Position numbers and translations under genes: made by a program | Shown here: positions 14,291-25,666 of the stretch, piece by piece | Layout: every line of letters starts with the position of its first letter | Position numbering within the stretch: position 1 is the stretch's first letter | Notes under the pieces: model-generated | What the model saw: only the letters and a program-made list of their open reading frames with translations | Database searches by the model: none | Told to the model about the DNA's origin: nothing | Assembly (NCBI GenBank): GCA_040754255.1 | Contig: JBFMDA010000003.1 | Location: forward strand, 1 to 54,710 | Source: Candidatus Omnitrophota bacterium | Lineage (GTDB): Bacteria > Omnitrophota > Gorgyraeia > Gygaellales > Profunditerraquicolaceae | Direction of reading: 5' to 3' | Length of the DNA: 54,710 nt

Positions 14291-14428
14291 AAAAAAAGCC
14301 GATAAAGGCGACGGCCAACATGTGTGCCATCTGTTCCTGCAACCCAGCTGCCATTTCCGGCGCCTGCCGCCGGGGGTAGGCCTGTGGCTTTGCGTCCCCC
14401 GGTTTCCCGGGGTTTGCCTTTATCGGTA
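14291..14428 (-). ncRNA. Cyclic di-GMP-I (GEMM-I) riboswitch with expression platform
   Basis: Minus strand CCGATAAAGGCAAACCCCGGGAAACCGGGGGACGCAAAGCCACAGGCCTA...GGCAGCTGGGTTGC matches the GEMM-I consensus; followed by GCCTTTATCGGC and a T run. Confidence 0.9.
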
Positions 14429-22387: not shown

Positions 22388-22690
22388 TCAGGCGCTGCCG
22401 TTACGCACCCGGTCAATAGTCTGCAGCTGATAATAACCAAGCACCTTTACCTTGGCCTTGGATTGAGAGACCAGCCAGTCATGCAATTTCTGCATGAACC
22501 GCTCATGGTCTTTTTTGGTCCTCCATTGGTATACGGAGGCATACTGGTTGCTGGCATCGCTCCTTTTCATGGTGAAATAGTTGATAAAGCCTTTCGCCTG
22601 TTTTGCATGGCGTGCCCACATCTTGCTGTCCCTGCGGTAATCCAGGACCTCGCGTGGCTTGATTTCGAATAATACCGTATGAAAAAACAC
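22388..22690 (-). CDS. Antibiotic-biosynthesis-monooxygenase-like (dimeric alpha/beta barrel) protein
   Basis: 100 aa with a GF...Y..W..DH pattern typical of ABM domains. Confidence 0.6.
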   Translation of the reverse strand: MFFHTVLFEIKPREVLDYRRDSKMWARHAKQAKGFINYFTMKRSDASNQYASVYQWRTKKDHERFMQKLHDWLVSQSKAKVKVLGYYQLQTIDRVRNGSA

Positions 22691-22777: not shown

Positions 22778-24610
22778 CTACCAATCGCAGCGCAGGCCCC
22801 ATTTTATCCACCGTGCCGGCTGCAAGACCCCTGCGACTTCTGAATAGTCGGTATCGGAAAAATTCTCAACGGCCAAAAAAGGCTCTAAGGTAAAGCCGTT
22901 GCGGGTTATCTTCTTTGACACATAGGCATCCCCTACGAAATATGTCTCGCCAAACTTACGTTCTATATACGAGAGCTGCCAACGCAGGTCTAAGCCGCAG
23001 ATGCGCTGGCGTATGCCTAAGAGCCATTGCTGTTTCGCGATATCGAGGGCGTATTTCGACTGAAAACCAGCCGCCTTATGGCGCGCTTCCTGAAATGCAA
23101 AAGATACCGTAACCTCCTCTAACCTTGTCCCCATATACCGCAAAGAAGGCTTTAGCGTACATCCAAGCTCTGCGCCCCTAAACTGTGCCTTACCCAGGTT
23201 TGTCGCCTGCCAGGCTTGCGAAGAAGTAGCGCGCGTCCAATCGATGAGATTACGGCCATTCCTTACGAATCCGTTAAGCTCAACTTCAAAAGGCGCATCA
23301 TACCAGCCGACCCCCAAAGAAAAATTATCCGACTTCTCTGCCTTTAAATCTGCATTCCCTTTATTTGCGGCATCGGAATAATAGAGTTCGGTGAACGTGG
23401 GAATCCTAAAGCCCCTGCTTACTTCGCCTTTCACCAATGCCCTGTGTTTGGCCGCCCAATACCCAAACCCGAGGTTATATGACGGCTGCTGCGGCCATTG
23501 TTGATAATGATCCAGCCGCACGGTTGCGTGCATATCTAATGCGTCGTGTATGCCGGAATGGATGCCTACAAGGCCGGCATTGAACAGGCGGGCGTGCTTG
23601 CCTAAGTTTGTCGAGTATATTTCATCCCTGCCTATGTCGCCGCCAAAGAGCAGGTCGCCGAAAGGTACGGCAACCGCGTATCTAGAATTTAGGCCATAGA
23701 CATAGGTCGTGTGATAATTGACCGAGGTAGGGCTATTTCTCCTTAAGATAAACTTGTCGCGGTGTTTTCTTAAAAATATACTATTGTGCAATTGCCCCGA
23801 ATACAGCTGGTTATCCAGGCCGGAACGCAGGAACACGGTTTCGGTGTGTTCTTCTTCTTCGGGGAACAGGTTAGAATAGAAGCTGTCAGCGCCAAAATCT
23901 TTTTTTTGGTAACCCAAGAGGAGGTCCTGGGTAAACCCATCCCATTCCTTGACAGCGTAGAGCGAGGCAATGGAATTCTTGAAATCGGTATTAGGCCTTG
24001 AGCCGCTTGAAACCGAATGATCAAAGGAGAGCCTGCCGGAAAAACCATCGCTAGGATACGATAACGAAAATGCCTGACCGAAGAGCGCATGCTCTCCGAA
24101 CGTCGCAGCAAGATGCGATTCTTTTTTAACCGGCTTCTTGGTGACGAAATTGATGCTTCCTGCCAATGCCCCGGTACCATAAAGAGAAGAGCTTGCATCC
24201 TTATGCACCTCTACCTTTTCAACGTCAAAGGCGGTAAGGGGCAGGTCCAGATTAAAATGGCCGGTCTGGGGGTCGTTGACACGCAGGCCGTCAATGAGTA
24301 TCCCTGCCTGCTCATAGGTAGAGCCTCTTAACGATATGTCTGACTGGATGCCGTATGTGCCGCGGCTGCGCACATCCAGGCCTTCTATCCTGTTCAGTAA
24401 TTCCGTAAAATAACCTCCGTGCGCAGGGCCCGCCATAGCGGCATCAACCGTATTCTTCCGGGATGCGGGGAAAAATGCATCAAACATATCCTGCCTGGGG
24501 GTTATGACGATTTTCTCAAGGGTATAGGAGTCATCGGCAAAGGCAATGCGGGGCAAGAAACACGCAAACGCAAGGAAAAAAGTAAGTCTCTTCTGTATGT
24601 GGTAACGCAT
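22778..24610 (-). CDS. TonB-dependent outer-membrane receptor
   Basis: Signal peptide, TonB box (EKIVIT), plug (ISLRG, ILIDGLRVND, VEKVEV..SSLYG.GALAGSIN), RIPTFTELY, LKAEKS, terminal aromatic residue. Confidence 0.93.
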   Translation of the reverse strand: MRYHIQKRLTFFLAFACFLPRIAFADDSYTLEKIVITPRQDMFDAFFPASRKNTVDAAMAGPAHGGYFTELLNRIEGLDVRSRGTYGIQSDISLRGSTYEQAGILIDGLRVNDPQTGHFNLDLPLTAFDVEKVEVHKDASSSLYGTGALAGSINFVTKKPVKKESHLAATFGEHALFGQAFSLSYPSDGFSGRLSFDHSVSSGSRPNTDFKNSIASLYAVKEWDGFTQDLLLGYQKKDFGADSFYSNLFPEEEEHTETVFLRSGLDNQLYSGQLHNSIFLRKHRDKFILRRNSPTSVNYHTTYVYGLNSRYAVAVPFGDLLFGGDIGRDEIYSTNLGKHARLFNAGLVGIHSGIHDALDMHATVRLDHYQQWPQQPSYNLGFGYWAAKHRALVKGEVSRGFRIPTFTELYYSDAANKGNADLKAEKSDNFSLGVGWYDAPFEVELNGFVRNGRNLIDWTRATSSQAWQATNLGKAQFRGAELGCTLKPSLRYMGTRLEEVTVSFAFQEARHKAAGFQSKYALDIAKQQWLLGIRQRICGLDLRWQLSYIERKFGETYFVGDAYVSKKITRNGFTLEPFLAVENFSDTDYSEVAGVLQPARWIKWGLRCDW

Positions 24611-24639
24611 GCGAGAGAGGCTTTTTGATTAAAAAAATA

Positions 24640-24667
24640 CCCGGCATTTATTATATGCAATGCCGGG
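24640..24667 (-). terminator. Hairpin terminator of the birA-containing operon, overlapping the receptor promoter
   Basis: CCCGGCATT/AATGCCGGG inverted repeat, followed on the minus strand by a T run. Confidence 0.6.
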
Positions 24668-24704
24668 CTAATTGTCAACCAGATAAAATTTATAAGTTTA
24701 CATT
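24650..24704 (-). promoter_or_regulatory. Consensus sigma70 promoter overlapped by a BirA-type operator
   Basis: Minus strand TTGACA (24678-24673)-17 nt-TATAAT (24655-24650); inverted repeat TGTCAAC-N16-GTTTACA (24673-24702) matches the BirA operator form TGTAAAC-N14/16-GTTTACA. Confidence 0.85.
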
Positions 24705-24709
24705 AGGTA

Positions 24710-25666
24710 CTAACGGCAATGTATCAGGTCACCCGCGGTCACTTTGTCTATGAGCCCTGCGTCGTTACGGATCAGGAGGCCTCCGTCGCTATCAATATCG
24801 AGCGCCTCTCCTTCGATGTGCCTTTTTTGATACACGACTTTTACCCTTTTTCCTATGGTGAGCGCATACGCACGCCAGCGCGCAAGAATCGGGTCCGGGC
24901 CTTCTTTTTTAAAAAGGAAATAGTGCTCCTCAAAGCTTTCCAGGAGGCATGTAAGCAGTGCCAGGCGGCTGACAGCGGTTTTAAGCTGCTCTTTCAACGA
25001 GGTAGCGCCTTCAGGCAATGCGCTCTTGTCGCTGTTGACATTTACGCCTATCCCGATAAGGACAAACGATACCGCATCGAGCTCTGCCTTCAATTCGGTT
25101 AAGATGCCTGAGACTTTACGGTGCGAGAGAAGGATATCATTAGGCCATTTGATTTGTGCCCCCAGGCCGGTTGTGTGTTTTATTGCTTCGCATACGCATA
25201 CGGCAGTCATAAGCGTTAAGAGCGGGGTTTGCGAGGGGATGATGTTGGGCTTGATAATCAAAGAAAGGTATATGCCTTTATATTTCGGAGAAGCCCAGGC
25301 CCGCCCCATCCTTCCCCTGCCGCCGCTCTGCGATTCGGCGATGACTACGGTGCCTTCCGGGGCACCCTCAAAACCCAGCTGCATGGCCTTATCCATGGTT
25401 GAAGAAAGTTTATCAAAATAATATATCTTTTTGCCGATGCAGCGCGTGCGCAGGCCAACGCTTACCTCTGGCGGGAAAAGCCTGTCAGGTACAGAAACGA
25501 GCTGATACCCTAGATGGGGGACCGCCACAATTTCGTATCCGGCATCCCGCAACTCCTGCACGTGCTTCCAGAGCGCCTGCCTGCTGACCTTAAGCCTGTG
25601 GGCAAGCTGGTCTCCCGACACATAGCCTTGTCTTTCTTTTAAAAACGCGATGATTTTATCCTGCAT
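24710..25666 (-). CDS. birA: Bifunctional biotin ligase / biotin operon repressor (with N-terminal HTH)
   Basis: N-terminal winged HTH (YVSGDQLA...VSRQALWKH), QSGGRGRMGRAW, KWPND, KVSGIL. Confidence 0.96.
   Translation of the reverse strand: MQDKIIAFLKERQGYVSGDQLAHRLKVSRQALWKHVQELRDAGYEIVAVPHLGYQLVSVPDRLFPPEVSVGLRTRCIGKKIYYFDKLSSTMDKAMQLGFEGAPEGTVVIAESQSGGRGRMGRAWASPKYKGIYLSLIIKPNIIPSQTPLLTLMTAVCVCEAIKHTTGLGAQIKWPNDILLSHRKVSGILTELKAELDAVSFVLIGIGVNVNSDKSALPEGATSLKEQLKTAVSRLALLTCLLESFEEHYFLFKKEGPDPILARWRAYALTIGKRVKVVYQKRHIEGEALDIDSDGGLLIRNDAGLIDKVTAGDLIHCR

Follow-up and report, generated by a model that had tools for sequence, protein, structure and literature searches.

To our knowledge, the described transporters of biotin (vitamin B7), BioY of the energy-coupling factor (ECF) type and YigM, are all inner-membrane proteins, and we know of no named protein with which Gram-negative auxotrophs concentrate biotin at the outer membrane. 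YigM has a fold unrelated to that of TonB receptors. Other vitamins do have such receptors: BtuB is switched off by its own vitamin's sensor, a cobalamin riboswitch, and the TonB-dependent thiamine receptors of Bacteroides, which are said to be riboswitch-controlled, set a precedent for a vitamin as small as biotin. Here we describe a TonB-dependent receptor gene that lies directly downstream of birA in a 54,710-nt stretch of DNA from an uncultured Candidatus Omnitrophota bacterium (contig JBFMDA010000003.1 of assembly GCA_040754255.1, positions 1 to 54,710), the whole of which we call the window. The promoter of this gene very probably carries a BirA operator, and the receptor, judged from its regulation and from the genes with which it co-occurs, probably carries biotin or a biotin conjugate (e.g. 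biocytin) across the outer membrane.

The nearest described counterpart of the operator is bioO of Escherichia coli, through which BirA, a bifunctional ligase-repressor that reads biotin status, controls bioA and bioBFCD. Read directly, the E. coli site between bioA and bioB is TGTAAACC-N16-GGTTTACA. The locus described here shares with bioO a TGTAAAC-type inverted repeat laid over a promoter, but its spacer is 2 nt shorter, its target is an outer-membrane receptor rather than a biosynthesis operon, and it sits at the 3′ end of birA within a composite of terminator and promoter. The published BirA signal is TTGTAAACC-[N14/15]-GGTTTACAA (PMC545781), and the sites given there before bioB, bioF and bioW in Geobacter and Desulfuromonas, at one or two per genome, read TTGTcAACC-[N14]-GGTTgACAA. 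These agree with the operator studied here in spacing and in the G variant of the right arm, but they control biosynthesis genes, and no receptor figures among the BirA sites in Table 1 of that paper. As far as the accessible parts of PMC545781 and PMC5343134 describe them, BirA regulons hold bio genes, bioY and, in the Desulfovibrionales, some fab genes; in the regulon descriptions of PMC5343134, TonB-dependent receptors stand only under other regulators. Full-text literature searches yielded no TonB-dependent biotin importer, although one may be mentioned in Rodionov 2002 or in subscription journals. The regulator and the transporter fold are thus familiar; the class of target is new, and probably so is the cargo.

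In the window, birA (24710..25666, minus strand) encodes a 318-aa protein in which a domain search found HTH_11, BPL_LplA_LipB and BPL_C. A 99-bp gap (24611..24709) separates it from the gene for the receptor and candidate biotin importer (22778..24610, minus strand), whose 610-aa product has a signal-peptide-like N-terminus followed by Plug and TonB_dep_Rec_b-barrel domains. The candidate operator, TGTAAAC-N16-GTTGACA (24673..24702, minus strand; TGTCAAC-N16-GTTTACA on the plus strand), starts 7 nt past the birA stop codon. Its right arm holds the -35 hexamer TTGACA (24673..24678, minus strand), from which a 17-nt spacer leads to the -10 hexamer TATAAT (24650..24655, minus strand). A preliminary description of this DNA had reported a perfect promoter pointing from the gap into the receptor, an inverted repeat with the -35 box as one arm, and a birA that retains its helix-turn-helix (HTH). 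All three observations stand: the promoter is a 12-of-12 match, the repeat lies as given above, and HTH_11 covers residues 3-55 of the birA product (E 2.8e-16), with the model TIGR00122 falling below its cut-off, as discussed later. The biotin ligase model TIGR00121 scores 221.8 bits on this protein, well above its cut-off of 83.1, and on this ground we rejected a reading as lipoate ligase.

The operator is a singular feature of its genome (1.49 Mb in 97 contigs, 95% complete). A search for TGTAAAC-N12..18-GTTTACA with up to two mismatches returned 21 matches, among which the operator is the sole one with a single mismatch. With a weight matrix trained on 65 sites from other genera, the lowest of which scores 26.3 bits, the operator reaches 40.6 bits and the runner-up in the genome 16.8, a gap that points to a BirA regulon with a single operator. 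A genome scan for further BirA boxes, as proposed in the preliminary description, thus leaves this as the only strong site. Written as aTGTAAACt-N14-GGTTGACAA, the operator also fits the published BirA consensus and the Geobacter sites. We considered and rejected a role for BirA as an activator, with a dimer near -45: a promoter that matches the consensus perfectly would have little need of one, and since repression is the only known mode of BirA, it would be expected here too.

Conservation of the box was assessed in 60 relatives plus the genome itself (61 genomes). The exact pattern TGTMAAC-N16-GTTKACA occurs at 33 sites in 32 of these genomes, and a reversed-pattern control occurs at none. 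With one exception, the exact sites are found no more than 60 nt from the 3′ end of birA, 30 of them before a receptor and two before bioB (genomes G043 and G048). Among the 10 genomes whose BirA lacks the HTH (with the BirA match starting at residue 49 or later), none has an exact box. In bioB-bearing relatives whose BirA has the HTH, a box precedes bioB-bioF with at most one mismatch in G003, G016, G038, G043 and G048 and with two in G047, and it does so as well where bioB is unlinked from birA (G040 and G035).

Of 301 Omnitrophota genomes sampled more widely, each at least 85% complete, 84 carry the exact box and two the reversed control. All 84 belong to the same class as our genome (84 of 227), and the other classes have none (0 of 74), so the box is not phylum-wide. 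We hand-picked 20 sites among the listed matches, from 13 other families of the class. Thirteen of these precede bioB-bioF, three precede birA-bioF and one precedes a radical-SAM gene followed by bioY; at two more, a receptor homologue follows and birA is not in the vicinity, and the last lies in an unrelated gap between rpsI and argC. Biotin synthesis or uptake genes (bioB-bioF, birA-bioF or bioY) therefore stand behind the box at 17 of the 20 picked sites and in eight relatives. Because classical biotin genes of the same class carry this box as well, it behaves as a BirA operator; its place on classical BirA targets within the lineage is, a binding assay apart, the strongest evidence that the palindrome before the receptor would be one too.

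Some individual sites in these scans are recorded here in their own right. In one of the other families (locus L188, G086:C9, 2510..4337), the box is followed by a gene for a 407-aa radical-SAM protein and then by bioY; by tblastn the radical-SAM protein is not BioB. The only exact site away from birA in the 61 genomes (G032:C45; L092, 1501..1530) lies inside the start of an unrelated gene, overlapping the start codon of a 247-aa Phenol_MetA_deg-like protein of outer-membrane-channel type, and adjoins a B12-binding radical-SAM gene. Both bioB and a receptor orthologue are missing from that genome. Another route through the outer membrane is conceivable there, and we set the site aside as a probable chance match; the palindrome between rpsI and argC (L186) was set aside likewise, the reversed control itself matching in 2 of 301 genomes.

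The preliminary description had proposed to ask whether orthologues of the receptor keep the palindrome and the linkage to birA, and they do. Among the 30 best receptor loci from the 61 genomes (our own included), birA lies directly upstream on the same strand in 29, four of which are truncated at contig ends, and 28 have a box with N16 and no more than two mismatches; locus L015 has a weaker version, and L033, from family f2, has neither birA nor box. Across these loci the identity of the receptor falls from 94% to 27%, and that of BirA stays at 50-63%. A scan with one genome per species gave 79 loci, 33 of which have birA and a box (at most one mismatch) before the receptor. Three others (L105, L114 and L160) have a box with a 17-nt spacer before a receptor without birA. 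The closest loci are titled Candidatus Omnitrophota; a few boxed loci bear unconfirmed titles such as Planctomycetales or Margulisiibacteriota. Together with the box on the bio genes of the class, this conservation strongly supports the earlier proposal that BirA controls the receptor promoter.

A feature overlooked in the preliminary description is that the -10 hexamer sits within a terminator-like hairpin at the end of birA. The hairpin and the run of seven T that follows it (24631..24668, minus strand), likely the intrinsic terminator of birA, consist of the arms gcccggcatt (24668..24659) and aatgccgggt (24648..24639), a 10-nt loop that holds the -10, and the T-run at 24637..24631. The structure folds at -22.2 kcal/mol with a z-score of -2.92. 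A terminator scan does not list it because the scan allows loops of up to 8 nt. In relatives, the 85 nt after the -35 likewise form a hairpin, which encloses the -10 alone or together with the start codon and usually has a T-run behind it; by our own reading, the folding energy is -13 kcal/mol or better at 27 of 29 boxed receptor loci, the exceptions L025 and L036 being weak. The stems differ in sequence between relatives. RNAalifold found no consensus in 18 promoter regions because the stems are out of register. We scored covariation on an 18-sequence alignment with a hand-set structure of nine pairs. In each of the nine pairs of the window's stem, both partners vary among the sequences, and the covariation score is 0.405 against 0.222 +/- 0.038 for shuffled alignments, with none of 500 shuffles as high and all slid controls lower, a comparison that is favoured by taking the structure from the window's own hairpin.

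At a bioB locus that is not beside birA (L059), the box and the promoter are present and the hairpin is missing, which fits the hairpin being the terminator of birA. In many relatives the ATG of the receptor gene lies 6-9 nt past the -10, or directly after the T-run, and the former arrangement suggests leaderless or near-leaderless mRNAs in those species. The 3′ arm of the terminator and the T-run also encode, in many relatives, the first residues of the signal peptide (e.g. ...RCGLFF...). Among receptors of about 30% identity (L022-L036, L046 and L056-L058), the 3′ arm and T-run were likewise seen within the first signal-peptide codons (...R-C/Y-G-L-F-F...).

The genome appears to depend on imported biotin. 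Neither bioB nor bioA reached its cut-off in it and bioD was not found, yet it encodes BioY and two proteins with biotinyl domains; it therefore needs biotin and must import it. BioY, which co-occurs with the receptor, serves biotin acquisition and belongs to BirA regulons elsewhere (within the class, for example at L188); unlike the receptor, it is an inner-membrane ECF S-component, and its fold is unrelated. The preliminary description had proposed an importer of biotin or of a biotin precursor. Import of biotin remains the favoured part, on the strength of regulation and gene co-occurrence. A precursor is unlikely here, because bioB was not found and dethiobiotin could not be converted.

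Across the 61 genomes, we found bioB in 16 and BioY in 43; 38 have a receptor orthologue, defined by E <=1e-50 or as a fragment next to birA. Of the 45 genomes that lack bioB, 41 encode BioY, as do two of the 16 that have bioB (G003 and G033). The alternation can be seen at a single place on the chromosome. The backbone reads nifS-birA-slot-mnmA-nadA, and the slot has one of three states: the receptor, in many cases accompanied by a 100-aa ABM-like gene; bioB-bioF with a bioH-like gene; or nothing. In G035 the slot is empty, and bioB lies elsewhere with a box of its own. In a bioB-bearing relative (G040:C1; L049, 1085..1209), the slot after birA was seen to hold, in place of receptor or bioB, a flavin mononucleotide (FMN) riboswitch scoring 117 bits. 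Collectively, these data are suggestive of a make-or-take pattern, in which bioB alternates with the receptor and BioY, and do not amount to statistical proof.

The receptor itself has a known transporter fold. Its domains match at E 2.8e-15 (Plug) and E 8.3e-21 (TonB_dep_Rec_b-barrel), and its Atlas model (pTM 0.89) has generic TonB receptors as nearest clusters. The N-terminus reads MRYHIQKRLTFFLAFACFLPRIAFA and then DDSYTLEKIVITP, with L31 and I34 nearly invariant; a putative TonB box was judged by eye. None of the curated NCBIfam subfamilies was reached, all models scoring far under their cut-offs: for BtuB, TIGR01779 (TonB-B12) gives 92.9 against a cut-off of 599.7 and NF007926 82.3 against 836, and among siderophore and haem models TIGR01786 gives 105 against 323.75, TIGR01783 59.4 against 223.5 and TIGR01785 75.2 against 316.85. 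The receptor thus falls outside the BtuB and siderophore families; clustering with these, and binding of their ligands, had been named in the preliminary description as a refutation of its proposal. Its best relatives by sequence among solved structures are BtuB and CirA (8blw, E 3.3e-25; E. coli BtuB, about 1e-21), and public names for it are generic or automatic (iron-complex or B12 receptor). Like BtuB, it would be a vitamin receptor of the outer membrane switched off by its own vitamin's sensor; the sensor here would be a protein repressor in place of a cobalamin riboswitch. For energy supply, the genome encodes two TonB_C proteins and one MotA_ExbB protein.

Exactly two proteins in the genome have a Plug domain, and the second bears on the cargo of the first. 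This 690-aa receptor on contig 23 (G000; L199, 2108..4430, minus strand) has a cobalamin riboswitch upstream (92.5 bits; gathering score 31.5) and a TonB_C protein downstream, and a scan of the window found no cobalamin riboswitch near the birA-linked receptor. With the B12 role filled by the second receptor, B12 is disfavoured as the cargo of the birA-linked one. Judging by the control elements beside the two genes, each of the TonB receptors of this genome is wired to the sensor of one vitamin.

We propose that, when biotin is plentiful, BirA carrying biotinyl-5′-AMP would dimerise on TGTAAAC-N16-GTTGACA, cover the -35 and block RNA polymerase. When biotin is scarce, or when the adenylate is drained by unbiotinylated acceptor protein, the operator would be free and the receptor would be made. 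The receptor would then move biotin over the outer membrane on TonB energy, and BioY would take it over the inner membrane. Transcripts of birA would end at the hairpin and T-run that wrap the -10. Those of the receptor gene, by standard promoter geometry, would start about 7 nt past the -10, inside the 3′ arm of the hairpin; lacking the 5′ arm, they would read on. Since read-through from birA would stop at the hairpin, expression of the receptor may depend on the BirA-controlled promoter alone.

Several observations weigh against this proposal. The repressor-domain model TIGR00122 scores 53.1 bits on BirA, under its cut-off of 70. The upstream region of BioY in the genome has no box by pattern scan or weight matrix; regulation would therefore be confined to the outer-membrane step. 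In G033, uniquely, bioB and a boxed receptor occur together, and eight genomes without bioB also lack a receptor orthologue, three of these being 64-76% complete and one having birA at a contig end. The anticorrelation may rest on few events, because the genomes are related and the BirA tree is poorly resolved: in that tree of 45 genomes, 5 of 42 branches are supported, the minimum numbers of changes are 8 and 7, and a single independent bioB/receptor pair falls on supported branches. Receptors in the slot are 27-50% identical between genera, against 50-63% for BirA, and could differ in specificity. In the three f2 genomes, a 28%-identical receptor homologue has no box and is not beside birA, and BirA lacks the HTH. 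Other phyla have homologues of 28-35% identity, beside which we found neither birA nor a box, and no riboswitch or biotin genes either; their titles name Ignavibacteria, Melioribacter, Elusimicrobia, Bacteroidota, Zixibacteria and others, and their neighbours are housekeeping genes such as dxr-rseP or tonB. Finally, biotin is small, and we know of no TonB transporter needed for it in model bacteria.

Three neighbourhoods met in these comparisons are noted for completeness. In a record titled Candidatus Saelkia (L109, 987..4093), a gene for a sodium:solute symporter directly adjoins a receptor homologue of 32% identity. A Syntrophobacter-labelled record (L172, 895..4081) has the order birA (with HTH), DUF1284, receptor, with no detectable box. 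In the window itself, the receptor gene is followed by a gene for a 100-aa ABM-like protein with no signal peptide (22388..22690, minus strand). In 23 of 53 loci such a gene comes directly after that of the receptor and has the same orientation, and birA loci without a receptor gave no match to the protein.

Among other explanations, the one that survives best, though we think it unlikely, is that BirA controls the receptor and the cargo is something other than free biotin: biocytin or biotinylated peptides of hosts or prey, or a nutrient needed when biotin-dependent carboxylation fails. The usual substrates of TonB transporters are either too big to pass porins or too scarce to be supplied through them, and the receptors in the slot diverge to 27-30% identity. 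BirA regulons can hold fabF, fabH and acpP, as PMC5343134 reports for the Desulfovibrionales, and the Omnitrophota are described as host-dependent in PMC10066038 and bioRxiv 10.64898/2026.06.07.730766. Against this, the receptor and bioB-bioF replace each other behind one operator, and the receptor is found together with BioY; this points to the supply of biotin itself. Its conserved downstream genes, those for the ABM-like protein and MnmA, include no peptidase- or biotinidase-like partner.

It seems improbable that the box is a relic of an ancestral birA-bioB arrangement, inherited by an unrelated receptor, whether for iron, B12 or some other substrate, that landed in the slot. Such a history would suit a slot that holds a receptor, bioB-bioF or nothing in different genera, a family that public sources annotate automatically as iron-complex or B12 receptors, and distant homologues without a link to biotin. 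It fits poorly with the retention of box, -35, -10 and hairpin down to 27% receptor identity and across at least four families, and with boxed receptors away from birA, both those with the 17-nt spacer (L105, L114 and L160) and two in family f15 (L182 and L183). A B12 cargo in particular is at odds with the riboswitch-controlled receptor that fills this role and with the lack of a cobalamin riboswitch near the birA-linked one. That the palindrome is no BirA site at all, being instead a conserved upstream region of the promoter or part of the birA terminator region, we regard as highly implausible: the right arm is simply a consensus -35 and TIGR00122 is under its cut-off, but the left arm TGTAAAC is preserved at a constant distance of exactly 16 nt, the two-armed box precedes bioB-bioF without birA or hairpin nearby (L059 and 13 class-level loci), and the box is missing in 10 of 10 genomes with HTH-less BirA, with reversed controls at 0 of 61 and 2 of 301.

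One further control element in the window stands apart from this locus, a c-di-GMP-I-GGC riboswitch aptamer (RF03167) at 14334..14427 on the minus strand, which scores 65 bits against a gathering score of 59.

Taken together, these data favour a model in which BirA represses a TonB-dependent importer of biotin or a biotin conjugate. We put at about even the broader proposition that the receptors are a family devoted to the TonB-powered import of vitamin B7, which would make them the first biotin transporters of the outer membrane, with a single BirA operator as the switch point between "make" and "take" in this class of Omnitrophota, a bioB-bioF cassette swapped for the receptor, and the nested promoter serving as a compact insulating device. 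On this view, ultra-small cells that depend on a host may use the receptor to scavenge biotin or biocytin of host origin at very low concentration. The accessible portions of the Omnitrophota literature describe a patchy biotin pathway and have no word on BirA boxes or a biotin receptor (PMC10066038; bioRxiv 10.64898/2026.06.07.730766). If the model is true, vitamin B7 would join the cargo list of TonB-dependent transporters, and the receptor would explain how genome-reduced Omnitrophota with a patchy biotin pathway meet their need for biotin. It would also offer a specific protein, a 30-bp operator and a possible handle for cultivating Omnitrophota.

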